From Thermoplasmata archaeon (GTDB lineage Archaea > Thermoplasmatota > Thermoplasmata > RBG-16-68-12 > SOIM01), in assembly GCA_023140195.1 (NCBI GenBank), contig JAGLME010000004.1, forward strand, positions 8,578 through 72,577: DNA of 64,000 bases, written 5' to 3'. The stretch's first letter is position 1. Each line of letters opens with the position of its first letter. This document shows positions 21,732 to 59,639 of this stretch, one piece after another. The notes under the pieces are model-generated. The model was given only the letters and a program-made list of their open reading frames with translations, did not search any database and was not told the DNA's origin. The translations under genes and the position numbers were made by a program.

Positions 21732-21900
21732 ACGTCCAACCTCCCCTGGTTACAGAGTACCAAAGGATTGCGAAAATAAAAACTTGATGCAACTGTTCGT
21801 CGCTCACTTCTGTCTCGAATTCAAGAGTCATAAAAACCTAAATACTAATCTTTCATTGGGATATACCAGTCGACTTCATAAGGGAATCAGAGGAGATAGA

Positions 21901-38157: not shown

Positions 38158-38720
38158 TCATTGCCCCCTTGGAGAAAATCGTTGGAGTGCTGGATGATGA
38201 GAGGTATCATCAGGTAAGGCCTGTCCGCGTTGGTGGTGTCCTCGATGTAAAGATAGAAGATGTGGTCGGCCTTGTGCCTGTCAGCGGCTATCAGAGAAGG
38301 GCTGGATATCGCCTTCCTGGCCGAGGTGATGTCCAGGGCGACCTTGTTCTTCGCCTTCTTCTCCTTCTTGATGATGTCGGAGATCTTCTTGCCGGTTGCA
38401 ATGAAATCGTTCTCAGGGAGCTCCACGATGATTATTGAAGGCTTCTTGTCACGGCCCTCCAAAAGCGTCAGGATCCGTTGCTCATTCCTCTGGGCGCCCT
38501 TCATGTTCTTCTTGGTGCTGCAGATGTACACCTTATCCGGGATGTAGCCCTGCTCGCGGACGCTGGCCCAAAGGCTGTTGATCAACGCCCATTCTGACTG
38601 GCCTGACAGGGTGATGTATACCTTCAGCCGTTCTCCTCCTCGTCTTTGGATAGGATACTGGCGTAATATAGATTTTGGATTATTGGTGGAGATTCTCCCT
38701 GTGGTATCTCTGGACATCAT
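38154..38720 (-). CDS. CARF-like Rossmann-domain protein without HTH (Csa3 N-domain-like)
   Basis: LKVYITLSGQSEWALINSLWA, then SIIIVELPEN and ALDITSARKAIS, parallel the two CARF motifs of its neighbours. Start uncertain (41-nt overlap with the upstream gene). Confidence 0.3.
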   Translation of the reverse strand: MMSRDTTGRISTNNPKSILRQYPIQRRGGERLKVYITLSGQSEWALINSLWASVREQGYIPDKVYICSTKKNMKGAQRNEQRILTLLEGRDKKPSIIIVELPENDFIATGKKISDIIKKEKKAKNKVALDITSARKAISSPSLIAADRHKADHIFYLYIEDTTNADRPYLMIPLIIQHSNDFLQGGNE

Positions 38721-39312
38721 TCCCTGAGAGGTAGATGTTCCCGTCCTCCACGGTCACGTCCAGAAACTCCATCTTCTTCAATCCCCTGATCGCCTTCTGC
38801 ACGGACGAAATGGCATGCCCGTCCTCGACAAGCATCTGCTCGAACTCCTTGCGCTCCACCTTCCCCTCCATCTTGAGGATGACCTTTCTCTCCATCTCTG
38901 TTAGCATCTCTCTTGCGGACAATCCCACTATGGTCGGGAGTTCAATGAGCTGGTCTTCACAATGATACGCTTTGACACCTTCCTGGAAGCTGGCCAGCAG
39001 AGCAGCATCGGATAATACCTTGGTCCCGCCGCTGAAATTGACGATCACTTCCGCACCTGTTCTGGAGTACTTGTCAATGGCCTCCCTGACCTTCTTCAGG
39101 CAATCCATGAAGTCAAAGACGTTGACAACAACCGTGTCCATTCCTGTGGGTCCACCCGACTCTATCTCCTGAAGGCGTTTGTAACTGTCCTTCTTGAGGG
39201 AATCCTCACCGGTCACCACGACGAGTCGGTCATAGGCCAGCATTCTCATCGCAGATTGGATCTTCGTATCGTCGAAGCCGAATGTGGTTATGAGAATGCG
39301 CGTGGGGTTCAA
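38680..39312 (-). CDS. Csa3-like CARF + winged-HTH transcription regulator
   Basis: ILITTFGFDDTKIQSAMRMLAYDRLVVVTGE, VIVNFSGGTKVLSDAALLASF and a C-terminal wHTH, compared with Csa3 VTMGFNE...LVIVVP and DLTMGMR (recalled from memory). Confidence 0.45.
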   Translation of the reverse strand: MNPTRILITTFGFDDTKIQSAMRMLAYDRLVVVTGEDSLKKDSYKRLQEIESGGPTGMDTVVVNVFDFMDCLKKVREAIDKYSRTGAEVIVNFSGGTKVLSDAALLASFQEGVKAYHCEDQLIELPTIVGLSAREMLTEMERKVILKMEGKVERKEFEQMLVEDGHAISSVQKAIRGLKKMEFLDVTVEDGNIYLSGNDVQRYHRENLHQ

Positions 39313-39316
39313 TCAA

Positions 39317-39955
39317 TCACTCCAACAGAAGGTCCACGTGAGGTGCCAAGCTTATCATCCTCACCCTCGAATCATCCTCACCCGGAGCAATCGTTATGAC
39401 GCCCTTCTTCTTGAGCTCCTTGATGTGGTGGTTCATGGTCGCCTTATGAATCCCGATTTTTTCTGCCAGATCGGTCTGCGAGATGGGTCTCTCCTTGTTC
39501 TTCCGCAGGAAGTTCAGTATCACTTTCTGTTTGCTGGTGAAGTTGGATGAGTAGTCCATCTGAAGCAAGGGAAGCCGTATCTCCTCGAATGTCTCGTCAT
39601 GAACGTACATCGTGGGAATTCCCTTCAGTATGCAGACCAGGAGAGCAGCGGAGCTGGTGAGCCTGGTGCCGCCAGCGATGTTGAAACGGATGTTCGCGTT
39701 TCCTTCGGACCGGACCTTCTCGATGTCCTCCTTCATCCTCTCGGCGATGTCGATGAGATTGAACACATTGGGCAGTTGTATTGGTTGGACCGGAAGGCCG
39801 ATCGAATTGCAGTGCTCGACGACCTTGTCTCTGGCCTTGATCGTTTCTGGATTGTCGCTGTGATAGAAATAGAGCTTCTCGATGTGCTTAGTGGACCTGA
39901 TCGAAGGTATGAGGCTCTGAGGCCTCCATCCCAGGGTTCCGAACAATATCGTCAT
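39317..39955 (-). CDS. Csa3-like CARF + winged-HTH transcription regulator
   Basis: TILFGTLGW..., IRFNIAGGTRLTSSAALLVCIL, and a C-terminal HTH ISQTDLAEKIGIHKATMNHHIKELKKKGVI. Confidence 0.5.
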   Translation of the reverse strand: MTILFGTLGWRPQSLIPSIRSTKHIEKLYFYHSDNPETIKARDKVVEHCNSIGLPVQPIQLPNVFNLIDIAERMKEDIEKVRSEGNANIRFNIAGGTRLTSSAALLVCILKGIPTMYVHDETFEEIRLPLLQMDYSSNFTSKQKVILNFLRKNKERPISQTDLAEKIGIHKATMNHHIKELKKKGVITIAPGEDDSRVRMISLAPHVDLLLE

Positions 39956-44776: not shown

Positions 44777-45691
44777 CTAATCTAATCCCTTCATGAGGTG
44801 GGAAACCTCCCTGAGAGCCACCATACTCTCTTCGCTGGCTTCTTCCGAGATTATTTCGATGCATCTTGTGCATGTGCTCAGAGCCTTGTCATGCTCGCCT
44901 TTGGATCTGTAGACCTCCGCCAGAGACAGGTAGGTCCATGGGTTTTCTGGTTCCACTTCCAGAGATCTCTCGTAAAGGGCCACGGACTCGTCCAGGTTCC
45001 CGTTGCTCTCCATCATCAGACCGAACTGGTTGAGCGGTGTGTAGTTGTCGGGCTGCATCTCGGCCCATTTCTGATAGACCCACTGCTCGTGAGAAGAAAA
45101 GCCAACGGCACCGGCGAAGTAAGCGAAGTTCTCCAGGACCTCTTCGGGATCGTTCTCGGTGGATGCAAGGGCGACCGCCTTCTGGAGGTATCTCGAATCG
45201 TCTGGATGCATCAACCTGTCCCATATCATTCCCATGTAGAAGTTGCAGTACGGGTCCTCAGGATCTCGTTTGAGAAAGGCCCTACAGTATTCTGCGGCCT
45301 CATCAAATCGACCGATCATGGCCAGTGACTGGATCAAGAACAGACGCGCCTCTGCCAGTGACTCGTCCCTCTTCAATGCCCTCCGAAGTTGCTCGATCGC
45401 AGCGGCCGGCTTGCCGGTCTCCATCAGGTGTTTGGCATAGATTACCCTGAGCGTCGGTATCTCCGGATATCGCGTGATCATTCCTCTCAAGGACTCCTCA
45501 AAGTTCTCGGGATCGACCTCGGACAAAAAGTAAGACAGGCCAGTAGGACCCAGCCTCTCGAAGTAATCCCTCAATGAACTCTGGAAGACCTTGTCCCTTG
45601 CGTCTGTCTTGGACTCACCAGAATCTCCCGTCATTTCCCATCCCATCCTAAAAGGGTTATGGAATACAGGTCTATAATTCTTTCTGGGCAC
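44777..45691 (-). CDS. TPR-repeat protein
   Basis: Multiple 34-aa W/LG/Y/A/F/A/P-pattern repeats. 304 aa. Confidence 0.55.
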   Translation of the reverse strand: MPRKNYRPVFHNPFRMGWEMTGDSGESKTDARDKVFQSSLRDYFERLGPTGLSYFLSEVDPENFEESLRGMITRYPEIPTLRVIYAKHLMETGKPAAAIEQLRRALKRDESLAEARLFLIQSLAMIGRFDEAAEYCRAFLKRDPEDPYCNFYMGMIWDRLMHPDDSRYLQKAVALASTENDPEEVLENFAYFAGAVGFSSHEQWVYQKWAEMQPDNYTPLNQFGLMMESNGNLDESVALYERSLEVEPENPWTYLSLAEVYRSKGEHDKALSTCTRCIEIISEEASEESMVALREVSHLMKGLD

Positions 45692-45841
45692 TAGACATTG
45701 GAAAACAGGGACCTTTCAAAAACACGACAAATGCTCAATTCTGATGCTAAGTAGAAAAACGAACAACACTGTTTAAATACGCTCAAAGACAATTAGAATG
45801 TACCTGTGAGGGACACCTGTAGCCCGTTGGAGAGAGGCGGG

Positions 45842-47722
45842 ATGACCCACGTAAGGAAGGAAAGAGGTTCTGGAACGATACGCATCGGCATACTTCTGCC
45901 AATGGTCGCTCTGGTCGTCATGTCTTTGGCCCCTTTTCTTTCCCAAAGTGCCGAGGCACGACCTTCCATGAGCGTCGAATTGAGTGTTAGCGACGCCAAC
46001 CTGGAACCCATGGACATTTTCAAATGTACGGTCTTCTTCAACAACAACGGTCATTCGTCAGCACCTCTGGTTTGGATCAATGTCACGATTCCTGACAGTG
46101 TGATGTATCTCTCTGATGACTCTGGAATGGAAAGGGGTGTGAAGGAAGGAGATCACATCTGGAGATTCCCGAACGTTGCCGAAGGAGAGCACACCTTCGA
46201 TATCAACATGCAGGTTTCGGTCAATGTTCATGAGGGAGATGTCACCATCATTTCCCATCTCGACTACCTGGACGACCTCCATATTCCCATGCCATCCTCT
46301 GAGGCCTTTGCCACTCTGTCGATCACCGGATCAGAGTGGAATCTCGCAGACCAGGTCGCGTTCAAACCAGAAGGCACCGTAGGCATACTGAAGGACATAG
46401 GGTCCTCCAAATCCAATACCTCGGTCAACTTCGATATTCAGTCCATCGGGCATGAGACAGGTGATGAGACGGCGCCGGTAGGCGATGACAAGGAGGTGGA
46501 GAATCCTGCACCGCCCCTGCCAGTCACGGACCCTGGCACATCACTTCCAGAAGACCGTATGGAAGACCCAGGGATCGATACGGGAATCGCACTGGACCCG
46601 ATTGACCAGGCTCAGGAGTCCTCCTCAAATCACCATGATCAACGTGAACCGGCCTCTACTCAATCTGAACCGGCAGCTACCGTAGAGGAAGATGCCAGGA
46701 TTGGGAGCGAGCAGCCAGATTCGTACACTGACTACAGCGTACCTACCGAGGTCGTGCAACCAGCGGTCAGCCCAGTAACGAAGATCGAGCCGTCCGAAGT
46801 ATCATCAAAGATCGTCAGCAACAACAATGTATACGGCGCCGGGGACGTGCTTTCGTTCACGATTTACCTGAACAACACCGGTTCTCAGACCGCGAGTCAG
46901 GTCTGGGTCGAGCTCGTGATCCCTTCCTCGGTCCGGTTGGTCGATGACACTTCAGCCCTGATCGGCGGCAAGTCGCTGGGGGAACTGGTCTATGTGTTCT
47001 CCGACATCGGTCCGGGCAACCACGAGTTCTTGATCTACTTAAGCTTCGAGGGAGAAGCGGACGAGTCCACCGAGGTGGAGATCTGGGCGCATGTGTCCTA
47101 CACGGACAGCGTGGGAGGTTTTGTGGGCGAATCTTCCCATCGCGCCAAGTGTGAGATCGTCGCTCAGCCAGGGGAGTTCCCGTTGATGCAGGTGTCAATC
47201 GCCATTCTCTTCGCGGGCCTGATGACCGTGGTGGCGTACTCGACCAAGGAATGGGGAACATACTCGCTTCTCCCGTTCATCGCCCCCCTGTATTCCAGGC
47301 TGAAAAGAAGAGAGGTCATGGACCACGAGTCGAGAGGGATGATAATGGGGTACATAAAGGAGAACCCTGGCGAGCATTTCAACTCCCTCAAGTCAAAGCT
47401 GGACTTCAGGAATGGAACCCTTGCGCATCACTTACACATCTTGGAGAGAGAAAGGGTGATAAAATCGGTGAGGTACGGGAAATACCGCAGGTTCTTCCCA
47501 GTGGGAATGATGGTCTCCAGAAAGGCTTACCCGACCGAGCTGGAGAGAGAGATCCTAGACGTGGTCAAGGAAAGACCAGGCATAAACCAGAAGACCATCG
47601 CCAAGAAGGTGGGCAGGAGCAAATCAACCGTCAACTACCACATTGACATACTGAGGAGAACGAATAAGATACGCACCGAGAAGAACGGGCTGAGCCTCAG
47701 ACACTACGTAATTGAATCCTAG
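45842..47722 (+). CDS. membrane-anchored transcription regulator: signal peptide + extracellular beta-domains + TM + two C-terminal wHTH (MarR/ArsR-like)
   Basis: Signal peptide MTHVRKERGSGTIRIGILLPMVALVVMSLAPFLSQSAEA. Ig/DUF11-like repeats, Pro/Asp/Glu linker, TM VSIAILFAGLMTVVAYS, then HTH units (HFNSLKSKLD...HILERERVIKS and GINQKTIAKKVGRSKSTVNYHIDILRR). Confidence 0.5.
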   Translation: MTHVRKERGSGTIRIGILLPMVALVVMSLAPFLSQSAEARPSMSVELSVSDANLEPMDIFKCTVFFNNNGHSSAPLVWINVTIPDSVMYLSDDSGMERGVKEGDHIWRFPNVAEGEHTFDINMQVSVNVHEGDVTIISHLDYLDDLHIPMPSSEAFATLSITGSEWNLADQVAFKPEGTVGILKDIGSSKSNTSVNFDIQSIGHETGDETAPVGDDKEVENPAPPLPVTDPGTSLPEDRMEDPGIDTGIALDPIDQAQESSSNHHDQREPASTQSEPAATVEEDARIGSEQPDSYTDYSVPTEVVQPAVSPVTKIEPSEVSSKIVSNNNVYGAGDVLSFTIYLNNTGSQTASQVWVELVIPSSVRLVDDTSALIGGKSLGELVYVFSDIGPGNHEFLIYLSFEGEADESTEVEIWAHVSYTDSVGGFVGESSHRAKCEIVAQPGEFPLMQVSIAILFAGLMTVVAYSTKEWGTYSLLPFIAPLYSRLKRREVMDHESRGMIMGYIKENPGEHFNSLKSKLDFRNGTLAHHLHILERERVIKSVRYGKYRRFFPVGMMVSRKAYPTELEREILDVVKERPGINQKTIAKKVGRSKSTVNYHIDILRRTNKIRTEKNGLSLRHYVIES

Positions 47723-47740: not shown

Positions 47741-48040
47741 CTACTCGACGTACCTGCTGGACAGGTCGAGGCATTCCCGGAGCCTGTCGTCGTCGCCCAG
47801 TTTCTTATAGAGATTCCCAAGCACCCTCCAGCCGCCTGGATATTCCGGATTCCGGGTGAGAAGCCCATACAATATCTCGACGGCCTCGTTTAGATTGCCG
47901 AGTTTGGCCAGAAGGAGACCTTTCATGAAAAGGGCGTCCACGTCGTAAGGATTGGTTGCCAACCTCATTCCGGACATTGCCGCGATCTGCTTGAGGTTCT
48001 CGTCCATCCCTTCGGAGTTGTTCCAGTCTGACCCTTTCAT
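47741..48040 (-). CDS. small TPR-like protein
   Basis: 99 aa with two TPR-like helices (ALFMKGLLLAKLGNLNEAVEILYGLL...). Confidence 0.35.
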   Translation of the reverse strand: MKGSDWNNSEGMDENLKQIAAMSGMRLATNPYDVDALFMKGLLLAKLGNLNEAVEILYGLLTRNPEYPGGWRVLGNLYKKLGDDDRLRECLDLSSRYVE

Positions 48041-48109: not shown

Positions 48110-50236
48110 CTATTCTTGCACCATATCCTCTGGCTCTTCTTCAGCGGGATCTTCATCTTCATCTTCATCTGAGGGTTCTTCCTCCGTAACAAGGGCCGCC
48201 TTCTTCCTCCTTGTCAGGATCAGAACAACTACAAGAACGACCACGATCACCACGATTGCGGCAATGATAAGAATGAGGTCAATGCCGGGTTCTGGGCGGT
48301 CTTCTGGATCTAGTAGATCTGTTCCGGCTCTGCATTCCTGCCCGTTGTCATATCCATCGTCGTCCCAATCATCGTCGGCATCTGTCGCGTTGACGGGGTC
48401 CATTCCGCAGTCGATCTCCTTCAGGTCGTCCACGCCGTCGCTGTCGCTGTCCGCAAAGTCGGGAAATGTCCCGTTGAGGTACTCTTCAAGATTGGTAAGA
48501 CCGTCCCCGTCGGGGTCAAGAGAGGAATCACCAGCGAACAAGGGGTCAAGTATCTGATAATCGAACTCATACCCATCTGGGATGCCGTCAGAGTCGGAAT
48601 CGGGATTTGTGGGGTCAGTACCTACGACGCCTTCAACAGTGTTGTCCAGACCGTCTCCGTCAATATCGCCATCACTGAAATCCGGCTCCCCGTCCCCATC
48701 GAGATCGTTCACGCTACCGTTGAATACCTCAGTGTGGCTCTTATCCATGAACACCGAACGGTTGTTCTGCTGGAAGGCCAGATCATACCACGACACATGG
48801 ATCCTTGTGATGTTGTTGATGAGAGTCGGTAGGTAGGTCATGTCAGTGACCACCATGAGCTGAGAGAACCCGCTGGCATCAGTGGTCACATTGTAGACCC
48901 GGTTGGACCCATCATAGACGTCCACACTTGCGTTTGCCAGATGTGTGCCGTTGTCATGAGAGATCACTTCGACCGTGAGGAAGTTCTGAATGTAAAGTAC
49001 TGAATCGTCGGCTGGGCTGATCGAAACGCCCGGATTCATCTGAAAGGTCGCGAAGGATGTGTTCACCAGGTGAACGGTACAGCCCCGAGAGAGCTCGAAC
49101 GTGAGGACCTCGACCTGGTCGACCGTTGAGTTCCAGAGCGTCGCCTTAGAATGGTCATATGCCAGAAATCCTTCCTTGAATCCAGTTACGGTCAGGTCCT
49201 CGAAGACAACATTGGCGTGGTCGTCCAGCTGGACACCTTTCCAATTGCCCAGAAGGGTGTCGCCTGTGGAGTTGACGATGGAGTTGACAATGTACATGCC
49301 GATAGTCTTGGAATCCATCACAAGGTTGCCCTTGGTGGTATCATTGGTGTTCAAAAGGTATATGCCCACGCTCATGAAGTGTATCTCGTTGCCTTCTATG
49401 GTCAAAGTGGATCCGACTGAGAGTATCCCATAGGGTGAAATTCCAGAAACATCCTTCTCGATGTAGTTGTCCCTGATGGTGCTGTTGGAGGAGATGGCAT
49501 GAATGGCCTTTTCCAGGTTGTTGACGAAATGGGAGTTGGTCACGTTGACCGAAGCGCCGTTCAGAACGAGTCCTTCCCTGGAGTAAGCGACGGTGATGTG
49601 GTCGAGAACTGACGTCTTATCGATGCTGCTGTACAATTTCAAAGAGGCCCAATCGCCAGAAGTTTTAGGGAGCAGGTTCGAAGTGAAGACGATGGGATTG
49701 GCTCCATCTCCTTGAGCGATTATCTTGCCTTCGACCGCCAAGCTCTTGTTCTGGTCGAAAGCGACAGTGGTCCCGGGTTCGATGGTGAGTGTTGCGTCAG
49801 TGGACACGAGTGTGGTTCTGCTGACAACGTGATTGCCCGGACCCCAGTGGTCAGGCACCGCGCTGAAGCTCTTGTTATTCACAATAGAGGCGTTCGCCGC
49901 ATAAGAAACGTTCACGAACCAGTCTCCCAGAGCCTCGACATGGTAGTAGCTCCAGGCGACCGCTTCAACATCTGGATCAATGATGTCAGTGAACGCCAGG
50001 CTGCCGTTGGGTGCATACCACTCGAATATGAGGTTGTCCACAGAGCCAGGATTGGGCTTGTTCTCCGAATCGAAATTGAGCCAGGAAAGGGCCTTGGCAG
50101 TTGAGTTGTTCAGGAAGTCGTTGACGATAAGATTGACGCCTGTCACCTCAACTGCCTGGACGGGCATAGGGACAGATACCAAAGAAAGGATGAGTAGAGA
50201 AGCCAGTATAACTCGCAGCCACTTCACACCATACAC
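48110..50236 (-). CDS. secreted right-handed beta-helix (pectin-lyase fold) protein with thrombospondin type-3-like Ca-binding repeats, C-terminal TM and acidic tail
   Basis: GTG start followed by a signal peptide. Beta-helix repeat segments, DLDGDGEPDFSDGDIDGDGLDN...DSDSDGIPDGYE repeats, TM LILIIAAIVVIVVVLVVVLIL and a Glu/Asp tail. Confidence 0.6.
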   Translation of the reverse strand: MYGVKWLRVILASLLILSLVSVPMPVQAVEVTGVNLIVNDFLNNSTAKALSWLNFDSENKPNPGSVDNLIFEWYAPNGSLAFTDIIDPDVEAVAWSYYHVEALGDWFVNVSYAANASIVNNKSFSAVPDHWGPGNHVVSRTTLVSTDATLTIEPGTTVAFDQNKSLAVEGKIIAQGDGANPIVFTSNLLPKTSGDWASLKLYSSIDKTSVLDHITVAYSREGLVLNGASVNVTNSHFVNNLEKAIHAISSNSTIRDNYIEKDVSGISPYGILSVGSTLTIEGNEIHFMSVGIYLLNTNDTTKGNLVMDSKTIGMYIVNSIVNSTGDTLLGNWKGVQLDDHANVVFEDLTVTGFKEGFLAYDHSKATLWNSTVDQVEVLTFELSRGCTVHLVNTSFATFQMNPGVSISPADDSVLYIQNFLTVEVISHDNGTHLANASVDVYDGSNRVYNVTTDASGFSQLMVVTDMTYLPTLINNITRIHVSWYDLAFQQNNRSVFMDKSHTEVFNGSVNDLDGDGEPDFSDGDIDGDGLDNTVEGVVGTDPTNPDSDSDGIPDGYEFDYQILDPLFAGDSSLDPDGDGLTNLEEYLNGTFPDFADSDSDGVDDLKEIDCGMDPVNATDADDDWDDDGYDNGQECRAGTDLLDPEDRPEPGIDLILIIAAIVVIVVVLVVVLILTRRKKAALVTEEEPSDEDEDEDPAEEEPEDMVQE

Positions 50237-50258: not shown

Positions 50259-53200
50259 CTATTTAGCGTTTTCTGGGACAATATCGTCTCCCGTCCCTTC
50301 ATTCCCATTTCCGCCGTCATCGATCTGGACGGGTTTCCTGATGAGCAGAAGAAGCGGCACTGAAAGCCCCACAAAGAGAATCACTAAGTCCACCGCCAAT
50401 CCAGCTCCGGCCACAGGAGGAATGCTGAGCGCTCCAGTTGCCGCAGAAACACCTCCAGTCATGCCTTCGGCTATGGCGAAAGGCAGGAACCAGTACTTCT
50501 TCATCTTGTCATCCACGTCCAGCTTCAAGAGGACCAGTACACCCACTAACAGGAGGATGATGGTGAGAACGAGCGCAAGAACAGGCTTGTAATTCGCTTG
50601 CTCCGCTGGTGCGGGTTCCAACACTTCGAAAGACCCGTCATTGCTGGCCCAATTCCCTCCGTCGTCTCTAGCCCAGACTGCAATGTTATAGATCCCAAAT
50701 TGATCATAGTTGAGCTCAGCCACATATCCACCATGGGCCGCATCATAATCCACCGTAACATTGTCTACGATAACTCCGCCAGGACCGGTCACTTCAACGC
50801 GCACCTCTTCCACAGAGCCATCGTCACTGACGCCGATAATCACTGAAACCATCTCTCCTTCCTCAACTTCTGGTGGTTGAATGGCAACGATCTCAACGTT
50901 AGGTGGATTGTCGACCACAACGACTGGGACGACATACAGAATCGCGTACTCCGACGGAGTGATGTTGAGGTTGTTCCAGGCATCCCAACCGTAGACCCAG
51001 ATCTCATACGTTCCCTCGGGGAGGGTCGATGTGTCCATCGTGAATTCGAGAACCTCATTGGGAGTGTCCAGGGGCGGGATCGAAGGTGTCATCATGGTCG
51101 AGTTCTCCCAAGAAAGGGAAGGAGAGGTGAAGTTCGCTCCGCCGATGATCGAATCTCCTCTAAGTGAATCATCAACCCGCGCGGAAAGAGTCACGCTGGA
51201 AGTCCCCGCCAGTATCGTTTTTGCAGCCATACCGTCTATCATCACATCAGAGACCACAGGGGGCAGATCGTCCACGACATCCAGGGTAGCACACGCTCCG
51301 GTAGTGTTGTGATTACCTTCTTGGTCGGAACCGTACACGCAGTATGTGTAAGTTCCAGGCTGCGATGGAGTGCCAACCGTTGCTTCCACATCCTCTACGA
51401 CCTCGTCCCAAGATCCGTCGGCAGGACTCATCGGAATGCCTGGCCAGGAACCTGGACCCAAAGTACGGTTGGCGGCACCAATCAGAGACGCGCCAGTTGA
51501 GGAATCATCCAAGACTGCAGTGAGAACAAATGACGGTGGAAGTGAGGAAAGGAAGAGGGTCTGCGAAGATGATCCATCCAGAAGGACGCTGATTATCTCC
51601 GGTGGAAGAGTGTCAATGGCTCCTGGAGGATTCACGATCAAGGTCCCGCATGAACCGACAGTGTTGTTGTTGAAGGCTTCATCCCATCCGTACGCGCAGA
51701 GGTCGTAGCTCCCCACGCTCATTGATGACGTGTCAACGGTGGCGTGGAAGCCTTCCATTATCGAGTCAAGGAAATCGTCCGGTATCATGGGCGTGGAGTT
51801 GACCCAGTTCTGAGATGGAGAAGTATAGTTGGCGCCAGCAATAATCGACCCACCGGTCAAAGAGTCGTCAACGGTGGCGAACAGTGTGACGGTCGGAGAC
51901 CCCACTGCGATGTTCCTCACGGGAATGCCGTCGATGAGGACCCCGCTCACGTCGGGAGCTATGTCGTCGAATACTGTAAGAGTCGCACAAGATCCGGTTT
52001 CGTTCAGATTGGGTATGGCGTCCCAACCGTACACGCAGAACTGCCAGCTCCCTGGATTGATGGGTGGGGAAGGCGATGTATGGAATCCCTCGACTGGAGT
52101 ATCGAGTATGCCGTCGGGTGTCATGAGCGTCGATGTGGGCCAATTGGCTGGACCCGTGGTGTAGTTCGCACCTCCGATGATGGAGTTGCCAGTAGCAGAA
52201 TCGTCCATGGTAGCAGTCAGAATCAAGGCGGGTATTGAAGACACGCCGTACATTGCGGCGGTCATCCCATTGACGTAAACGTCCAGAATGGCCGGAGGAT
52301 CGGTTTCCAACGCCACGATGAGGGTCGCGCACGTGTCGGTCAGGTTGTTGTTTGGCACATCGTCCCAGCCATAGACACAGAATGTGTACGTCCCGGATAT
52401 CAGAGCACCGGTCGGAACGGTCGCAGCGAAGTCCTCAAGCGAGGAGTCTAGAGGAGGGTTCACTGGGTTCATTGCAGTTCCAGGGAAAGCAGCCGGACCA
52501 TTCGTGTAGTTCGCGCCTCCTATCAGAGAGTTCCCGGTCGAAGTATCGTCCACGGTAGCCGTCAGCTGGACACTGGGAATGCCTTCCAGGATCACTCGAA
52601 CAGTGAGACCGTCGATCAGGACATTGCGCACTTCGGGTGCCAGGTCATCAAGAACGGTTAGATCAGCACAAGCCCCCAGAGTGTTGTAGTTTGGGACCTC
52701 GTCCCAGCCATATGTGCACACCTGATGAACCCCAACCGAGAATAAAGGACCATCCAGCGCAGCGTTGAATCCTTCTACGGATGTATCAAGAACATTGTCA
52801 GGTGTCATAGGGGCCGAAGTAGGCCAGTTCTGTGGGCCGAGTGTACGATTCGCTCCGCCGATATTGGAACCACCAGTGGTCGAATCATCCACTGTCGCGG
52901 TAAGTGTGAGAGCAGGAATGGAAGATATTCCGAAAGAGTAGGACGGCTGACCGTTTATCAGGACATTGGTGACCAAGGGTGCCTGGGTGTCGACAGCGAC
53001 GTTCAGGGTCGCACAATCTCCATCTGTATTGTAGTTCGGGATAACATCCCAACCATACACGCAGATCTCGTAGGATCCGAATCCAAGTGTTGATGTGTCT
53101 ACGGTAGCGTGGAACCCTTCGATCGGGCTGTCCAGAAAGTCATCAGGTATCATCAGAGAGGAGTTGGTCCAGTCCTTTTGCGGTGAAGTGTAGTTCGCCC

Positions 53201-54857
53201 CGACTATGTTTGAGTCTCCGGTTGATGAGTCGTCAAGGGTCCCGGTGAGAAATACGCTCGGAGTGCCTGCAGGAATCGTTCTTATGGCAAATCCATCGAT
53301 GAGAACATTGACAACAGGAGGTAGATCGTCGATAATGGTAAGGGTTGCACAAGAGCCAATGGTGTTATCATTGGGGACGATGTCCCATCCGTAGACACAG
53401 TACTGCCAGGTGCCCATTGAGGTTGGAGGAACGACATCGAAATGGAAGCCTTCGGTGGGAGAGTCCAGGAAGTCGTCAGGTACCATCATAGTTGATGTCG
53501 GCCAGTTCTGCGGACCGATGGTGAAGTTCGCGCCTCCAATGACCGAATTGCCCCTGGCGGAGTCGTCCACCGTTGCAGTGAGAGATACGGTAGCCGGAAG
53601 AGATGACATTGGGTATGTCTGTGCAGGCATGCCATCCAGCAGAACGTTCAGCACATCTGGCGGTGTGTTGTCCACGGGCGGAGCTTCGAACCCTCTCCTA
53701 TAGAATATGTCCTGGTCCCCGTCCCCCTGGTCCTCCCAGACCACGTGAACGACCCCGTTATCTGACGCCACGTATGGGTTCCACTGGTTCTCGGATGCCA
53801 CATCACCGCTGATCTCTTGTATGGCCGTCCATGATGTGCCATCGAACTGACGGTAGACGATGTCCCAGTCGCCGTCCCCTCGATCGGCCCATACTGTGTG
53901 GACCTTTCCGAACTCGGCTGCCACCGAAGGCACGTCCTGGAACTCGGTCCCGCTGTCAATGCTTATTTCAGTTATGGAAGAGAAGGTCGATCCGTCCCAG
54001 CTCCTGTGAAAAATGTCCCTATCGGTCCCCTGGACTTCTTGCCAGACCACGTGAAGTTTGCCGGAATCGTATGATATGTCGAGTTCATCCTGGGCTTCGC
54101 TCGCGGAGTCCTGGCTTACCTCGGTGATTGCTCCCCATGAGACTCCATTGAACACCTTCATCATGATATCGGTGTCCCCACCGCCGGCGTCGACCCATGC
54201 CACGAACACCCTGCCACCGCCCGCTGCGATACACGGGGAGGTCTGGGCCTCTGTTCCGACGTCCGCGCTCAATTCCTGCACCGAACTCCAGGAGACACCG
54301 TTATGAAACCTGTAGTATACATCCCAATCGCCATCCCTACCATCCTGCCAGACGACATGTACATTCCCACCGGAAACTGCCACTCTTGGATATTGCTGGG
54401 TCTCGATCCCGACATCCACACTTACCTCCTGGATCGGACCCAGGACGCCTGCAGATCTGCTCCGGTACATGATATCCCAGTCGCCGCTGATAGGGTCCTG
54501 CCACACGGTGTGAACCGTGCTACCCTCGACCGCAACGTCAGGCAGCCACTGGTCCACGGACCGGTCGTCCGTGTTCAGCTCCTCTTCGAGCTGCCATGCC
54601 GCGCCGTCGTGCTCCCTGAGGAATATGTCGTAGTCCCTGTCCCCGTTGTCAGACCACACCGCATAGGCCTTGCCAGCGTCCGCAGCGATCGCGGGATATC
54701 TCTGGTATTCTATCCTTTTGTCCTCACTGACCTCCTCTATGGGGTCCCAGGTGATGGCCAATGCTCCAGGTACAAAGAACAGTGGTGCGAGAAAGGACAT
54801 GAGAACTAGAACTGAGACCAAGATGCCACTTTCTCTCCTACCTAGAAGACCGCTCAT
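50259..54857 (-). CDS. giant (about 1530 aa) cell-surface protein: signal peptide, about eight D-x-D-I-x-Y-R ...W repeats, nine ~95-aa repeats, Ig-like module, multi-TM C-terminus
   Basis: Start trimmed to the ATG at 54857 (signal MSGLLGRRESGILVSVLVLMSFLAPLFFVPGALA). Repeats carry TATVDDSxTGxSxIGGANYT. C-terminal hydrophobic segments. Confidence 0.6.
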   Translation of the reverse strand: MSGLLGRRESGILVSVLVLMSFLAPLFFVPGALAITWDPIEEVSEDKRIEYQRYPAIAADAGKAYAVWSDNGDRDYDIFLREHDGAAWQLEEELNTDDRSVDQWLPDVAVEGSTVHTVWQDPISGDWDIMYRSRSAGVLGPIQEVSVDVGIETQQYPRVAVSGGNVHVVWQDGRDGDWDVYYRFHNGVSWSSVQELSADVGTEAQTSPCIAAGGGRVFVAWVDAGGGDTDIMMKVFNGVSWGAITEVSQDSASEAQDELDISYDSGKLHVVWQEVQGTDRDIFHRSWDGSTFSSITEISIDSGTEFQDVPSVAAEFGKVHTVWADRGDGDWDIVYRQFDGTSWTAIQEISGDVASENQWNPYVASDNGVVHVVWEDQGDGDQDIFYRRGFEAPPVDNTPPDVLNVLLDGMPAQTYPMSSLPATVSLTATVDDSARGNSVIGGANFTIGPQNWPTSTMMVPDDFLDSPTEGFHFDVVPPTSMGTWQYCVYGWDIVPNDNTIGSCATLTIIDDLPPVVNVLIDGFAIRTIPAGTPSVFLTGTLDDSSTGDSNIVGANYTSPQKDWTNSSLMIPDDFLDSPIEGFHATVDTSTLGFGSYEICVYGWDVIPNYNTDGDCATLNVAVDTQAPLVTNVLINGQPSYSFGISSIPALTLTATVDDSTTGGSNIGGANRTLGPQNWPTSAPMTPDNVLDTSVEGFNAALDGPLFSVGVHQVCTYGWDEVPNYNTLGACADLTVLDDLAPEVRNVLIDGLTVRVILEGIPSVQLTATVDDTSTGNSLIGGANYTNGPAAFPGTAMNPVNPPLDSSLEDFAATVPTGALISGTYTFCVYGWDDVPNNNLTDTCATLIVALETDPPAILDVYVNGMTAAMYGVSSIPALILTATMDDSATGNSIIGGANYTTGPANWPTSTLMTPDGILDTPVEGFHTSPSPPINPGSWQFCVYGWDAIPNLNETGSCATLTVFDDIAPDVSGVLIDGIPVRNIAVGSPTVTLFATVDDSLTGGSIIAGANYTSPSQNWVNSTPMIPDDFLDSIMEGFHATVDTSSMSVGSYDLCAYGWDEAFNNNTVGSCGTLIVNPPGAIDTLPPEIISVLLDGSSSQTLFLSSLPPSFVLTAVLDDSSTGASLIGAANRTLGPGSWPGIPMSPADGSWDEVVEDVEATVGTPSQPGTYTYCVYGSDQEGNHNTTGACATLDVVDDLPPVVSDVMIDGMAAKTILAGTSSVTLSARVDDSLRGDSIIGGANFTSPSLSWENSTMMTPSIPPLDTPNEVLEFTMDTSTLPEGTYEIWVYGWDAWNNLNITPSEYAILYVVPVVVVDNPPNVEIVAIQPPEVEEGEMVSVIIGVSDDGSVEEVRVEVTGPGGVIVDNVTVDYDAAHGGYVAELNYDQFGIYNIAVWARDDGGNWASNDGSFEVLEPAPAEQANYKPVLALVLTIILLLVGVLVLLKLDVDDKMKKYWFLPFAIAEGMTGGVSAATGALSIPPVAGAGLAVDLVILFVGLSVPLLLLIRKPVQIDDGGNGNEGTGDDIVPENAK

Positions 54858-54991
54858 GCAAATCTCCTCGCAGATGGCTTCTGCCAACTGACGCACCAAC
54901 CCAAGAATCCTGAGTGCTTAAGTAATTTTCAGCCTGGATATCAGTCTCGTGCTCCCCAAATAAAAAGAAGAAAGGGAGAGTGGTTGCGGCT

Positions 54992-56761
54992 CTACTTGCA
55001 GATAAAGCCGTCGCCAACTTCCAGGTCGAAGCTGAATGTATCCGTCCCACCATCGTCATCCGTGACGGTCAGTGTGACGGTGTAGGTACCAGCAACTCCG
55101 TATGTGTGGTAGGTCGTGTCCGTGACGATTATGGGTGGCATCTGTCCGGTTATGTTCGTGTACCACGGGTCCCATGGAGCGCCAAGTGGTTCGTACGGGC
55201 TGCCAGGCGGGAATGCCGGGTCGGGCCCTCTCAATGGGTCGTACAGGTACAGGTTGGACGTCCAATTGGCGTCGCCCCAGTCCCAGTCGAACGTAAGATC
55301 GTCCGACCCTGGATCGGTCGCGGTCGCAACGAACTTTATTGGCACTCCGGCAGCTGCACCGACGTTCAGGTCAATGATCCACGGCTCGACGTGGTTCCAG
55401 TGATCGCTGTCCCTCTTGATCGACTGCTGGACGTTGAAGGTGTGGCCCTCCTTGCAGGTTGTTCCATCCGGGAAGGTGGCTGTCAACCAGATCGGGTTCG
55501 CACCCCACAGCTGTCCGTTTATGGGTTGGTCGCCCAAGATGGCGTCACCCTGGTCCTCGAACGGATCGTAGGTGATAATTGCCGTGTAGGTGTCCTGTCC
55601 ACTCACATCGATGGCTATTGGAATGGAAGCTCCAGTGCTCGGATTCTGGTCCGGGGGTCCGGGCCATCTCTCCACTTCCATTGCACCGATCTCTTCATCC
55701 CAGGTCTCATTAATCGGATCGTAGTTCTTGACCACTTTGAGCTCGACGTTGTGCCACTTCTCACCAGCTACCCTTATGCTCAGCTCGAACTCTATGAACG
55801 CACCCTCGAAGTCCAGTTCTGGGGCCACGTTCAAGACGGTCACATGCTGGTATGCAGAGGCGAAAAGGCCGTCATCATCCGTGACGGTTAGCTTGACATC
55901 GACCTCGTAGTCGTCCCACCAAGTGAAGGTCACGATCGGACCAACGGCGTCAACATCGTTTGAAGGGTCTCCATCGCCATCCGAATCGACATCGGCGTCG
56001 AAGTCCCACTCGTAGCTGACTATTTCTCCGTCAGGATCGTTTGAGCAGGTTCCGTCGAACACTACCTCATTCCCCTCGTTGACGGTTCTCTCTTCTCCGC
56101 CCACGATACAGGGAATCGGTGGTTCCTTGTCCTGCGGTAGCGTCTCGGAAGATACCATGGTGACATCATGACCGTTGGGCGTCTTTGCCAACGTAATGGT
56201 GTCAAAAGCATCGAAGTGTATCTCGAAGTCCGGGCTCGGATCGGGTCCGAACAAGACACTTACTGTTAGGTATACAGTGCTCTTTGCCGGCACGGTCCCA
56301 GGTGCATGATGATATACATCCCATATCGCGTCCGTTCCAACATACACGTGATGCCGTCCACCGTGGGACTCGTCAAAGGGATTGTATTCGGTTGAACCGA
56401 AATCTCCCAGATAATGTGTGGAACTCTCGATCGTTATGCTCACAAAGTCGTCCGCGGTCGTCTCTGGTGGTGGCAGATCTGGTCCATGTATGGCCATGGC
56501 GATCCTGAGGTCCACGAGCGGATCCTTGCCACGGTTCTCCACGATCAGGGTGAAGTTATACACACCATTAGGCGTGTATTCTGCTGGGCAAATGAATCCC
56601 CCAGCTTGCCATCCGCCGCCGTGAGCCCTTTGTCCGGGATCACAATCCAGCCATATGTGCGCCGCACTCCCCGCCGAAACAGAGAGTGGTAGATACGACA
56701 GCGACATCACTATTGCCAGAATCATAACTACGGCTTTGTTTCCGTTTCTTGTCTCTTGCAT
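54992..56761 (-). CDS. secreted PKD-domain protein
   Basis: Signal peptide. Two PKD-like modules (VTFTWWDDYEVDVKLTVTDDDG...; TYGVAGTYTVTLTVTDDDGGTD). Confidence 0.55.
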   Translation of the reverse strand: MQETRNGNKAVVMILAIVMSLSYLPLSVSAGSAAHIWLDCDPGQRAHGGGWQAGGFICPAEYTPNGVYNFTLIVENRGKDPLVDLRIAMAIHGPDLPPPETTADDFVSITIESSTHYLGDFGSTEYNPFDESHGGRHHVYVGTDAIWDVYHHAPGTVPAKSTVYLTVSVLFGPDPSPDFEIHFDAFDTITLAKTPNGHDVTMVSSETLPQDKEPPIPCIVGGEERTVNEGNEVVFDGTCSNDPDGEIVSYEWDFDADVDSDGDGDPSNDVDAVGPIVTFTWWDDYEVDVKLTVTDDDGLFASAYQHVTVLNVAPELDFEGAFIEFELSIRVAGEKWHNVELKVVKNYDPINETWDEEIGAMEVERWPGPPDQNPSTGASIPIAIDVSGQDTYTAIITYDPFEDQGDAILGDQPINGQLWGANPIWLTATFPDGTTCKEGHTFNVQQSIKRDSDHWNHVEPWIIDLNVGAAAGVPIKFVATATDPGSDDLTFDWDWGDANWTSNLYLYDPLRGPDPAFPPGSPYEPLGAPWDPWYTNITGQMPPIIVTDTTYHTYGVAGTYTVTLTVTDDDGGTDTFSFDLEVGDGFICK

Positions 56762-56795
56762 TTTTCTTCCTCCTTAGAGGTCAAAAGGTATTTGT

Positions 56796-56819
56796 GTCCC
56801 TTTCCCCATGGAAAGGGAC
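56796..56819. promoter_or_regulatory. perfect 10-bp inverted repeat gtccctttcc-ccat-ggaaagggac in a divergent intergenic region
   Basis: Perfect 10-bp inverted repeat around a 4-nt loop, 35 nt upstream of the 54992-56761 start codon and 260 nt upstream of 57081. Confidence 0.4.
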
Positions 56820-57080
56820 CACCGTAAACGGCTATGCGCCCCTCCCCGGCGCCCACAGGCAGTCTCCCCCTCTCCTATTAGGTTTGAGATCCTTACCGCG
56901 TTGCTTTGCTTATTGGTCTGTAGATATATAAGAGAAATCTGGTCTTCACCAAGTTAGTTACCAATTACCAACCATGAAAACTAGATTGAAAACCTTTAAA
57001 AAGAGCCAGATTCTGTCATCACTCCCAGGTTAGCCACGAAAGTAATAAATCTACTACATCTGATATGAAGGCTGGGAACC

Positions 57081-59639
57081 ATGTCTCGCTCGGTCTCCCC
57101 TCTCCTAGTGTTGGTATTCTCGTTTCTCATACTGAACAGTCTGGTGATGGTTGTCAAGGCACCACCTGAGAATTGGGAAGTAACAACCCAGAGGTCGGGA
57201 TATTTTGTTGGGGAGAGAATCGAAGCACGGATGATATACACCTACCCGGGAAACCCGGCTGCCAATTTGACGGTCAAGTTCGAGTGGAAGGATCCGATGG
57301 GAGGGTGGATATTCAACGAAACCAAGGTGATGACGTTGTACTCCAACGACAAGTACGCGGCGGCCTTCAGCAACTGGACTGCCGACATGACTGGGACCGA
57401 CTTCACGGTCATAGGAACTCACGTATCTGAGGCGGAATTCTCCGAGGCTCATTTCGAAGTCTCAACATACGATGAAGTGGCGGTAGTGGAATCGCTCTCA
57501 ATAATCACCAGTCGACCCTTCTACGAGAACAACACTGTCGCCAAAGCAACAACGACAATGGGCTACCTGGGCAATGGAACCAAACTGGGGAACGTGACGG
57601 TCGAATGGCGATACCCCAACAGCACCCTTGCATTTTCAGAGAACGTCACTTCACCGGATGGGGGACCAAACGGAACCTCTGTGGTAAACAGCTTCTGGGC
57701 GGTAGACTTCGCGGGAACTGGCTTCGAGGTGCAGGCCACATACAACGGCGTCCAGCCGCTGACGGACACTGCCACCTTCGACGTGATTCCAGAAAGAGTG
57801 AAGACGTGGAAGAACGCGACCAGCGGGAGTGAAAATTGGACCGCGACCGATAGTCCTTATGGCGTGTGCGACAATATCACTGTCCAGCTAGGTACTACGT
57901 TGACGATCGAAGCCAGTTCAGTGATCAGGTTCTGTCCTGACACCGGGATCATAGTCCGCGGTGCACTGGTAATGGATGGCTCCCCGACCTCCAAGATCAA
58001 CCTGACATCATTCTCTTATCCCAGCAATAGAGGGGATTGGAAAGGTGTGAGCTTTGAACCGGAAAGCGTTGACTCGATATCCTTCGTCAACCAGGTAATC
58101 GTGGAATACTCCCGAATTGGACTTCTATTGAATGAGGCGTCACCGACTGTCACGAACGTATCAGTAGCGAACTCGTCGGTCAGCGGGATAGAGGTCCATC
58201 TTTCATACGTTCATATCGATGGAGTCAGGATTACCGACTCTGGACGCGGCATATACGCTGTTGATTCAACGCTTCAGCTAAGGAATTCGGAGATCCTCCG
58301 ATGCGACGACGGTGTCGCAATGGAGTACTCCAACGGGACACTGCAAGAGAACTGGATCCACCACAACACGAACAGAGGGATCTGGTTGGTAAGCTCCAAT
58401 CCGGGGATTTCGAGCAATACGATCCTGTCTAACACCAATGAAGGAATCAGGATAGACAACTCAATGGACGTTCTCCTGATGGACAACATCATCAGCGGGA
58501 GCACGATCGGGTTCTACGGCTTCCAATCAACCGGTTTGATTCTTCAGGAGAGTTACATTTCCAACGCTGCCTCGGTTGGGATCGCGGCATGGACATCGGA
58601 CGACGTTCTTGTCGAGAACTCGACCATTGCATCCTCGCTGACCAGCATCAGAGTGACGGCGGGATCCGATGTCACCACCTTGAACTGTACATTTGACGAT
58701 AATGCGACGTTCGTCTCCAGCGGATCCAGACTCTATGTCGACAACTACCTTGATGTGAGGGTGATGGACACGATTGGGACTCCTCTGGAGGATGCTTCTG
58801 TCACGCTTACGAAAGATGCTGTTCCGGGGCTGATAGGTTACTCCGGACCAGATGGGTGGCTGAAATGGAACATAGTCAGGTATGAGACGTTCATTGGGCC
58901 AAACCGGACTTTCACACAAGTGGCCTTGGATGTGAATCTCGATGGATACAACATTACCAACAGTCCGAGGGACGTGAACATGTCCGTGAGTCATACAGAG
59001 GACTTCGAAGGTCAACAGGTGGATATCCCGCCTGATGGGGATGGCATTGATGCATTCTTGATGATGATTCTCGGAATCGTGGGAGGTGTCATTGCGGCCC
59101 TAGCTGCGATCCTCTTCATATTGGCATGGCGTCGAAAGAAGAAGGCGGAGGAGCCCGATGAAGAGATCGGCGCTCCCGAGTTCGATCTGGAGGAAGGAAA
59201 AGCGTACATTGTGACTCAAGATGGGCCCAGCAGAGGATTCGAAAAGTTCGTCAGTGAGATTGGAGATGGGGCAAGTGGACTCTGCTTCACGAGAACGTAT
59301 CCCAAGAACCTCGAGAAGAGCTATGACCTGGAGAAGGCGAAGGTTCTCTGGCTGAGCAGGGACCTAGACAAGGGAGGACTCATACCAACTAACCTGGGCC
59401 TCATAACCAACGAGGTGGACAAGTTCCTCGACGAGAACAAAGACGGCAGAAGGCTCATACTACTGGACGGACTGGAATACCTAATCGCCCAGAACGGCTT
59501 CGGAAAGGTCCTCAAATTGTTGAACCATCTACGAGATATGATGGGCGTCAGCAACGGGACGCTCCTCATACCCTTCGACATGAAGAGCGTGGAGGAGAAG
59601 GAGGCCGCCATGCTCAAGGCGGATCTTGAGGTCGTGTAG
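57081..59639 (+). CDS. secreted beta-helix (NosD/CASH-like) protein with TM anchor and cytoplasmic DUF835-like domain
   Basis: Signal peptide, then parallel beta-helix repeats (N.T and GI.L motifs). TM LGIVGGVIAALAAILFILAW. The C-terminus (GLCFTRTYP...RLILLDGLEYLIAQNGF) matches the DUF835 pattern. Confidence 0.6.
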   Translation: MSRSVSPLLVLVFSFLILNSLVMVVKAPPENWEVTTQRSGYFVGERIEARMIYTYPGNPAANLTVKFEWKDPMGGWIFNETKVMTLYSNDKYAAAFSNWTADMTGTDFTVIGTHVSEAEFSEAHFEVSTYDEVAVVESLSIITSRPFYENNTVAKATTTMGYLGNGTKLGNVTVEWRYPNSTLAFSENVTSPDGGPNGTSVVNSFWAVDFAGTGFEVQATYNGVQPLTDTATFDVIPERVKTWKNATSGSENWTATDSPYGVCDNITVQLGTTLTIEASSVIRFCPDTGIIVRGALVMDGSPTSKINLTSFSYPSNRGDWKGVSFEPESVDSISFVNQVIVEYSRIGLLLNEASPTVTNVSVANSSVSGIEVHLSYVHIDGVRITDSGRGIYAVDSTLQLRNSEILRCDDGVAMEYSNGTLQENWIHHNTNRGIWLVSSNPGISSNTILSNTNEGIRIDNSMDVLLMDNIISGSTIGFYGFQSTGLILQESYISNAASVGIAAWTSDDVLVENSTIASSLTSIRVTAGSDVTTLNCTFDDNATFVSSGSRLYVDNYLDVRVMDTIGTPLEDASVTLTKDAVPGLIGYSGPDGWLKWNIVRYETFIGPNRTFTQVALDVNLDGYNITNSPRDVNMSVSHTEDFEGQQVDIPPDGDGIDAFLMMILGIVGGVIAALAAILFILAWRRKKKAEEPDEEIGAPEFDLEEGKAYIVTQDGPSRGFEKFVSEIGDGASGLCFTRTYPKNLEKSYDLEKAKVLWLSRDLDKGGLIPTNLGLITNEVDKFLDENKDGRRLILLDGLEYLIAQNGFGKVLKLLNHLRDMMGVSNGTLLIPFDMKSVEEKEAAMLKADLEVV

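Follow-up and report, generated by a model that had tools for sequence, protein, structure and literature searches.

The window analysed here, a 64,000-nucleotide stretch of contig JAGLME010000004.1 from a Thermoplasmata archaeon, carries on its plus strand an uninterrupted open reading frame (ORF) that runs from a GTG at 45806, or from an ATG at 45842, to position 47722. The product of this gene is predicted to carry two adhesin-type immunoglobulin (Ig)-like domains outside the cell, joined through one transmembrane (TM) helix to two winged helix-turn-helix (wHTH) units in the cytoplasm. Here we lean towards reading it as a type-I single-pass transmembrane transcription regulator that probably links cell-surface events to gene control. 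The gene and its parts are listed below, with amino acid (aa) positions counted from the ATG; AlphaFold2 (AF2) confidence is given as the predicted local distance difference test score (pLDDT), and dN/dS denotes the ratio of nonsynonymous to synonymous substitution rates.

45761-45779, plus strand: putative promoter core, a conserved GAACAACACTG block and then the TATA box TTTAAATA (45772-45779); orthologue conservation
45829-45841, plus strand: Shine-Dalgarno-like GGAGAGAGGCGGG (GGAGAGAGG block) abutting the ATG; kept in orthologues
45842-47722 (stop codon counted), plus strand: complete transmembrane tandem-wHTH gene, 626 aa; ORF, Pfam, orthologues and dN/dS
45842-45958, plus strand: predicted signal peptide, aa 1-39; hydropathy and charge, conserved motif
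45968-46324, plus strand: first Ig-like beta-sandwich (DUF11/CLIPPER-like), aa 43-161; AF2 all-beta with pLDDT >80, Pfam, fold matches
46334-46798, plus strand: predicted disordered, acidic, Pro-rich spacer, aa 165-319 (about 155 aa); pLDDT <50 and no secondary structure
46799-47161, plus strand: second Ig-like beta-sandwich (DUF11/CLIPPER), aa 320-440; Pfam, TIGR01451 repeat, AF2 pLDDT about 70
47177-47245, plus strand: predicted single TM helix, aa 446-468; Kyte-Doolittle peak 2.05, helix in the AF2 module model, family position
47246-47323, plus strand: predicted juxtamembrane helix, aa 469-494; family motif T-E-x-G-K-Y ... P-L-Y-[ST]-[RK]-[LI]-K ... L-D, helix in the model
47324-47500, plus strand: winged HTH 1 (PF24266, HTH_HVO_0163_N; ArsR-like), aa 495-553; Pfam 6e-15, pLDDT >90
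47537-47710, plus strand: winged HTH 2 (HTH_24/MarR/HTH_20 type), aa 566-623; Pfam 1.5e-9, pLDDT >90

The ATG at 45842 is taken as the true start because a TATA box lies upstream of it, a Shine-Dalgarno-like block precedes it and the frame of the longer GTG version is lost in the orthologous locus L001. DNA between GTG 45806 and the ATG is conserved in orthologues and its reading frame differs in L001; the GTG was rejected as a start, since an extension that is out of frame there behaves as a noncoding leader. The TATA box TTTAAATA lies about 65 bp upstream of the ATG and fits the archaeal TATA consensus, and the GAACAACACTG-TTTAAATA block is invariant or nearly so across six orthologous loci, the distant L005 among them. 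Read against the archaeal promoter consensus, this block would act as a transcription factor B recognition element (BRE) and TATA box. An orthologue search returned 19 proteins of 53-100% identity with the same architecture, from many independent assemblies. With the architecture repeated so often, we rejected an artefact of assembly or fusion.

In an alignment of 16 orthologues (56% identity overall) the tail from about residue 480 was nearly invariant and the ectodomain varied, most of all in the spacer, especially at aa 200-320. Nei-Gojobori comparison with three orthologous loci gave dN/dS of 0.07-0.14 for the wHTH region, 0.13-0.50 for the two Ig-like domains and 1.07-1.43 for the spacer, the last from two close comparisons. 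Judged by these ratios the gene is under purifying selection, and the low wHTH values, along with orthologues of the same architecture in independent assemblies, indicate that the gene is real.

The C-terminal region matched known HTH families in Pfam. HTH_HVO_0163_N (PF24266) was assigned to aa 496-554 with 55.5 bits (cut-off 31), and the second unit was matched by HTH_24 (aa 566-610, 37.7 bits, cut-off 21.9), HTH_20 (aa 569-606, 29.0 bits, cut-off 27) and MarR (aa 569-608, 25.7 bits, cut-off 24.6). NCBIfam returned only below-threshold similarity to ArsR/SdpR/Csa3-HTH. The closest solved relative of wHTH1 by sequence was 5duk_A, a 77-residue 'putative DNA binding protein' (5.6e-6, aa 34-99 of the C-terminal query). 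A full-length AF2 model built on 16 orthologues (mean pLDDT 58) showed two beta-sandwiches, a disordered stretch at aa 165-319 and two wHTH units. A model of the module, built on a diverse 23-sequence alignment (pLDDT 85.5), showed the TM helix, a juxtamembrane helix running into wHTH1 and two canonical H-H-H-beta-beta winged helices, mostly at pLDDT >90. Single wHTH units superposed on the DNA-binding repressors ArsR, SmtB, CzrA and NolR at 0.8-2.4 Å, and their wings and recognition helices are strongly basic. Fold matches of the whole module were to the tandem winged-helix proteins TFIIIC, RPC34/62, ESCRT-II, ScpB and SelB. Among 146 modules of the family described below, R498, P509, G510, N524, G525 and H530 of wHTH1 are kept at about 100%, and the recognition helix of wHTH2 varies among paralogues more than that of wHTH1, at the usual specificity positions. 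From its families, fold and charge, the tandem wHTH probably binds DNA.

The N-terminus has a basic n-region (4 K/R within the first 15 residues), a hydrophobic h-region at aa 16-35 and the sequence AEA/R at aa 37-40, within an FLSQxAEARP motif that is kept among orthologues, and cleavage of this signal peptide is predicted. Beyond its h-region, hydropathy detected only one TM segment, at aa 446-468. The 405 residues of aa 41-445 contain 17 K/R against 69 D/E, while aa 481-626 contain 32 K/R against 16 D/E. In the family, a TM segment stands right before wHTH1 in 145 of 148 members, with a mean net charge over 20 residues of -1.0 before it and +1.6 after it. The wHTH pair is placed in the cytoplasm because the ectodomain is acidic, only one TM segment follows the signal peptide and the tail is basic, as the positive-inside rule requires. 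We regard this architecture, with its C-terminus inside, as very likely on the basis of hydropathy, charge, Pfam, structure prediction and fold search. The sequence of the TM helix itself is variable across the family and rich in Ala, Gly and Ser. The segment that follows it is highly conserved, with E470 at 92%, P482 at 89%, L483 at 97% and Y484 at 95% in the 146 modules. The window protein reads S-T-K-E-W-G-T-Y ... P-L-Y-S-R-L-K here, and its E470, P482, L483 and Y484 agree with these 89-97% conserved columns. A conserved hydrophobic run of about 11 residues (aa 474-484) comes after the polar T-E-x-G-K turn and is followed by K/R residues; we infer that it is a membrane-interface or juxtamembrane helix, too short for a membrane crossing.

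Outside the membrane, Pfam recognised DUF11/CLIPPER (PF01345) at 46.2 bits (gathering cut-off 24.6) in two stretches, the best at aa 324-372, and TIGR01451 scored 27.7 bits (cut-off 24). A PDB sequence search with the ectodomain gave no significant match. Its Foldseek matches were to the calf and thigh (leg) domains of integrin alpha, RbmA, cohesins and the adhesins CNA, ClfB and ACE. DUF11, since renamed CLIPPER, is an adhesin-stalk domain in which an intramolecular isopeptide bond is frequent and not universal (bioRxiv 10.1101/2025.04.25.650565). Such a bond is doubtful in the window protein, in which K323, the sole Lys near the first strand of domain 2, is replaced by Glu in most orthologues and no Lys occurs in the first strand of domain 1. 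In L005 (8030-10576, Methanomassiliicoccales archaeon E29_bin30) the syntenic orthologue is 848 aa long and has extra DUF11-like domains in place of the disordered spacer. This suggests that, in the lineage of the window, DUF11-like domains decayed into the spacer or were replaced by it.

A preliminary description of this DNA had proposed a signal peptide, an external ectodomain, one TM helix and two cytoplasmic wHTH units, and this layout is borne out by Pfam, AF2, fold search and the positive-inside rule, here and in 145 family members. The C-terminal region does resemble HTH proteins, by Pfam and by fold, and nothing in the analysis placed it outside the cell. The same description had given the ectodomain as beta-rich and about 430 aa long. 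The beta domains stand, whereas the length after the signal peptide is corrected to about 405 aa, and about 155 aa of this is disordered spacer.

A word-indexed homologue search with the C-terminal module alone found 3 proteins, and an exhaustive search was needed to reveal the family to which the gene belongs. A phmmer query with aa 440-626 against 1.84 billion cluster representatives matched 6333 of them at E<=1e-3; tightening the limit to E<=1e-10 left 2631, and to E<=1e-30, 213. The best 150 matches, proteins of 160-2185 aa, carry the module as their very last part (median of 10 residues beyond it), and the majority of members have an N-terminal hydrophobic segment and one TM segment right before the module. 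PF24266 and HTH_24 were both found in 62 of 62 sampled members. The N-terminal parts of the sampled members were surface modules, PKD, Big_9, He_PIG, DUF11, CARDB, FG-GAP, NPCBM-associated and similar, all of extracytoplasmic types; one family member is annotated as a parallel beta-helix protein, and Big_1 occurs once in a frequent subtype of about 330 aa. Some homologues, at 111-210 aa, are so short that they contain little beyond the module, and many of these may be fragments.

We also scanned one genome per GTDB species with narrow peptide patterns built on a 5-sequence alignment, and its locus counts and taxonomy are lower bounds: all 68 loci found were in archaeal metagenome-assembled genomes, labelled nearly always as Thermoplasmata, Thermoplasmatota, Thermoplasmatales or Methanomassiliicoccales, and several genomes carry two or three copies. 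The closest loci were in Methanomassiliicoccales archaeon CSMAG_404 and CSMAG_371. In their source records the family members carry only general names ('winged helix-turn-helix transcriptional regulator', 'MarR family', 'repeat protein'), which conceal the membrane topology. We found no description of a tandem-wHTH family in Thermoplasmatota in the literature outside subscription journals. By these sequence comparisons the window protein is one paralogue of a large Thermoplasmata-type family, in which a constant cassette of TM helix, juxtamembrane segment and tandem wHTH is joined to interchangeable surface modules.

For the window protein we envisage the following course of events. After removal of a Sec-type signal peptide, the two adhesin-type (DUF11/CLIPPER) Ig-like domains would stand outside on an acidic flexible stalk, while the TM and juxtamembrane helices would hold the basic ArsR/MarR-like wHTH pair at the cytoplasmic face of the membrane. 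Binding or mechanical engagement of the ectodomain by a surface, a polymer, an envelope protein or a neighbouring cell could then alter the oligomeric or conformational state of the cassette or, alternatively, trigger its proteolytic release, and the tandem wHTH would alter its occupancy of DNA near the membrane. Having two recognition helices, one chain could contact a pair of neighbouring half-sites as a monomer, which would suit a protein confined to two dimensions. Control of transcription in response to a signal is the part of this scheme that we favour less firmly than DNA binding itself, and still favour.

The gene is flanked by the following genes, which lead into a set of surface-protein genes between 48 and 60 kb.

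44777-45691, minus strand: TPR protein, 304 aa, without TM; divergent from the regulator gene, with a shared 150-bp intergenic region in every orthologous locus
47741-48040, minus strand: TPR protein, 99 aa, without TM; convergent with the regulator gene, ends the minus-strand gene row, missing in L192
48110-50236, minus strand: beta-helix/NosD protein with a C-terminal TM anchor; minus-strand row
50259-54899, minus strand: 1546-aa protein, no Pfam match; minus-strand row
54992-56761, minus strand: PKD protein; minus-strand row
57081-59639, plus strand: 852-aa beta-helix/NosD protein with C-terminal DUF835 (6e-30); beyond the intergenic region

Gene order with the surface-protein genes is kept in 9 of 9 orthologous loci, although not every one of them has the giant gene and the small TPR gene. 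Synteny there extends to the whole 20-kb neighbourhood, with its oxoacid:ferredoxin oxidoreductase, acetyltransferase and Csa3-like pair, and adjacency is weak evidence of a functional link because of this. The 1546-aa ORF is present in L001-L003, L193 and L194 and absent from L192 and from the closest relatives, L004 and L010. Ectodomains of paralogous tandem-wHTH proteins in L007 and L008 share 40-42% identity with its product; tandem-wHTH regulators and surface proteins therefore appear to have one domain pool in common. In the product of 57081-59639, too, a surface-type region may be coupled to a conserved C-terminal domain, which would make it the second such protein at the locus, and genes for DUF835-like proteins and KaiC-like ATPases recur beside other family members. 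Two adjacent CARF/Csa3-like genes (38680-39312 and 39317-39955, minus strand) are kept as a pair in all orthologous loci; one has HFX_2341_N/Csa3_N only, and the other has Cas_APE2256 and a MarR/HTH_24 wHTH. Well outside the 48-60 kb island, at 21586-26124 on the plus strand, a 1512-aa ORF, whose product has Big_7 and Y_Y_Y-like Ig domains towards the C-terminus, encodes another large putative surface protein.

The intergenic region between the two divergent surface-protein genes (56762-57080), which the preliminary description had put forward as a binding target, is more conserved than the genes that flank it, with 83% mean column identity over five loci including L005. On the minus strand it is the leader of the PKD gene. 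The structured part of the leader is about 125 nt (56765-56889) with 37 predicted pairs, and in its consensus four local hairpins are surrounded by outer helices, in which part of the AGGAGG Shine-Dalgarno sequence is base-paired. In eight orthologous leader sequences 96% of cells were paired, as compared to 46-62% in slid-partner controls, and seven pairs showed compensatory, two-sided changes; 1 of 500 shuffles gave that many. Rfam had no match for the leader RNA. A metagenome scan with a G+C-rich leader pattern gave chance matches only, among which nhmmer found no new homologue. The leader RNA may be a translational riboregulator of the surface-protein operon.

The same region holds a repeat cluster, TGGT-N4-ACCA-N7-TACCAA-N-TACCA, at 56940-56970, between divergent TATA-like boxes at about 56924-56931 and about 56996-57003. 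Its repeat bases are invariant in 7 of 7 aligned loci, including the distant L005 and L192. The cluster and the conserved promoter block of the regulator gene are each unique in the window, and the ACCA-repeat cluster is absent from the regulator gene's own promoter. It is a candidate transcription-factor site for both divergent surface-protein promoters, and it is the most concrete, though speculative, candidate operator for the wHTH fragment.

Several results weigh against our reading of the protein as a regulator or against its control of the island. The topology is a prediction from hydropathy and charge. The ectodomain consists of adhesin/Ig-type modules and a spacer and contains no recognised ligand-binding or sensing domain, and evidence for the sensor role given to it in the preliminary description is thus circumstantial only. 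Several of the best whole-module fold matches (ESCRT-II, ScpB) bind proteins and not DNA. Paralogues whose ectodomains differ completely have nearly the same wHTH1 recognition helix, which would be odd for paralogue-specific regulons and fits a shared partner or a generic DNA contact instead. No target motif was derived, and DNA binding is inferred for all family members. At 64 non-orthologous family loci, neighbours within two genes were not enriched for signal-peptide-like proteins (0.14, versus 0.14 for distant genes), and no motif was common to the regulator's own promoter and the island promoter region. In the same 64 loci neighbours of at least 600 aa were slightly commoner (0.13 versus 0.07), and the recurrent neighbour families were housekeeping genes, reflecting the synteny of one sub-lineage. 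The preliminary description had raised the question whether the fusion stands beside surface-protein genes in related genomes; it does in the orthologous lineage (9 of 9 loci) but not as a rule at the 64 other family loci, which lack signal-peptide enrichment. Regulation of the 48-60 kb island, also proposed earlier, has circumstantial backing only, given a wholly syntenic neighbourhood, no family-wide enrichment and no shared promoter motif. Control of the neighbouring surface-protein genes is therefore doubtful, and the operon is a candidate target only.

The main rival explanation is a structural one, in which the protein is a surface coat or adhesin glycoprotein and the wHTH tail serves as an envelope anchor, attached either to the nucleoid without specificity or to some conserved cytoplasmic protein, with particular genes under no signal-dependent control. 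The family ectodomains would suit such a role, being adhesin and stalk modules only (PKD, Big_9, He_PIG, CLIPPER, CARDB, FG-GAP, beta-helix), and the stalks of fibrillar adhesins are typically made of CLIPPER/DUF11 domains (bioRxiv 10.1101/2025.04.25.650565). It is kept alive by the near-identity of wHTH1, which together with the near-invariant juxtamembrane motif across paralogues suggests one common ligand, and by the fold matches to ScpB and ESCRT-II. However, the sequence matches go to DNA-binding HTH families (ArsR, MarR, HTH_20, HTH_24), the single domains superpose on DNA-binding repressors, the wings and recognition helices are strongly basic, and wHTH2 shows from paralogue to paralogue the kind of variation in its recognition helix that is usual for specificity determinants. 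Ordinary surface proteins at the locus, for example that of 48110-50236, end shortly after their TM helix. On balance we consider the anchor unlikely.

Less likely still is a regulator that works by proteolytic release, as in Notch, SREBP or RsgI-like systems, with an inactive membrane form from which cleavage frees a soluble tandem-wHTH transcription factor. It would account for a juxtamembrane segment with an invariant P-L-Y motif that is as conserved as the DNA-binding domains, for the small residues (Ala, Gly, Ser) in which family TM helices are rich and for the homologues of 111-210 aa that are barely larger than the module, many of which may be fragments; the long, fast-evolving disordered spacer would be protease-accessible. 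But neither the window nor the orthologous loci showed a protease gene linked to the locus, nothing points to a cleavage site, and ToxR, CadC and ArnR are known to act while tethered, also according to the accessible parts of one survey (PMC10269533). A reversed topology, with the juxtamembrane stretch as a second pass and an extracellular wHTH pair that binds extracellular DNA, for example in a biofilm matrix, has in its favour the second conserved hydrophobic run past a short polar turn and the short homologue P0022, in which an N-terminal hydrophobic segment and then an acidic stretch occur without an obvious second TM, and is extremely improbable, as the run at aa 474-484 is too short to span the membrane, a K/R cluster and a strongly basic tail come next and AF2 gives one continuous helix into wHTH1.

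We therefore retain the transmembrane regulator as the favoured reading. A wider proposal would be a plug-and-play receptor family, in which adhesin ectodomains are hard-wired to the cassette and contact is turned into transcription without kinases or second messengers, with the window gene controlling the adjacent operon through 56940-56970; taken together, these claims are tentative, and we would not expect all of them to hold. Signal transduction is poorly understood in archaea without abundant two-component systems, and almost nothing is known of it in the uncultured Thermoplasmatota that abound in sediments. If the cassette binds DNA, this would be one of the simplest outside-to-gene pathways known, and the hundreds of surface-module fusions, with several copies per genome, may, if the proposal is true, constitute a major route of surface and partner sensing. 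The conserved output is compact (about 150 aa), and the cassette could be a chassis for engineered receptors. Taken alone, the gene is moderately interesting, and the family to which it belongs is more so.

Transmembrane transcription regulators (TTRs) occur in bacteria and archaea and are defined by a DNA-binding domain and a TM region, as set out in the accessible parts of a survey by Demey et al. 2023 (PMC10269533). The window protein falls within this definition, with a predicted DNA-binding domain and at least one predicted TM region, and it would act on transcription from the membrane. According to the same parts of the survey, single-pass proteins are the commonest TTR type, and HTH_20 and HTH_24 are on its list of TTR domains. 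TTR is an umbrella class and not a homologous family. Those parts of the survey, which covered few Thermoplasmatota genomes, do not mention PKD, CARDB or DUF11 ectodomains or a C-terminal tandem-wHTH cassette (PMC10269533). What is known is thus the TTR class, and what appears new is a C-terminal tandem-wHTH cassette on adhesin-type ectodomains, for which we found no prior description.

ToxR and CadC are likewise one-component, single-pass proteins, with an extracytoplasmic domain and a cytoplasmic winged helix in one chain, which act at the membrane. In ToxR and CadC, however, the DNA-binding domain is N-terminal and no signal peptide is present, whereas the window protein has a signal peptide and C-terminal DNA-binding-type domains. 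Their output is a single OmpR/PhoB-type Trans_reg_C domain, to which the window protein has no match, its own being a tandem ArsR/MarR-type pair. Their external part is a dedicated sensor domain, and that of the window protein is made of adhesin-type Ig modules.

The architecture had been described beforehand as poorly characterised in archaea, a fair statement, as only ArnR and ArnR1 of Sulfolobus acidocaldarius are cited in the accessible text as characterised archaeal membrane-bound regulators (PMC10269533). They share with the window protein an archaeal host, a membrane anchor and an HTH DNA-binding domain, and they regulate surface structures (archaellum, pili). ArnR is crenarchaeal; its HTH is N-terminal, its TM helices are C-terminal and it lacks a large ectodomain.

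The likeness to ArsR/SmtB metalloregulators is limited to the fold and the recognition-helix pattern, with a score for NF033788 of 33.2 bits, below the cut-off of 55. These regulators are homodimers of a single wHTH with metal-binding sites, in contrast to the membrane-anchored tandem wHTH of the window protein. Since wHTH1 matches PF24266, a family named after HVO_0163 of Haloferax volcanii, it also resembles HVO_0163-type regulators. HVO_0163 has been described as an ArsR-type transcription protein whose level rises under hypochlorite stress (PMC10294847). We found no experimental test of PF24266 function in the literature.

The RsgI-type anti-sigma factors known from cellulolytic clostridia, and also Notch-like receptors, have an overall design like that of the family: interchangeable extracellular binding modules are connected by one TM helix to a cytoplasmic part that stays the same. 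The likeness is a functional analogy, under which an array of paralogues could read insoluble or surface-bound cues. There is no homology, and where those systems use an anti-sigma domain or release a co-activator as their output, the window protein would use a tandem wHTH of direct DNA-binding type. If the receptor family is real, it would be an archaeal counterpart of Notch/RsgI-style signalling, leading from surfaces, polymers, partners or viruses to transcription.

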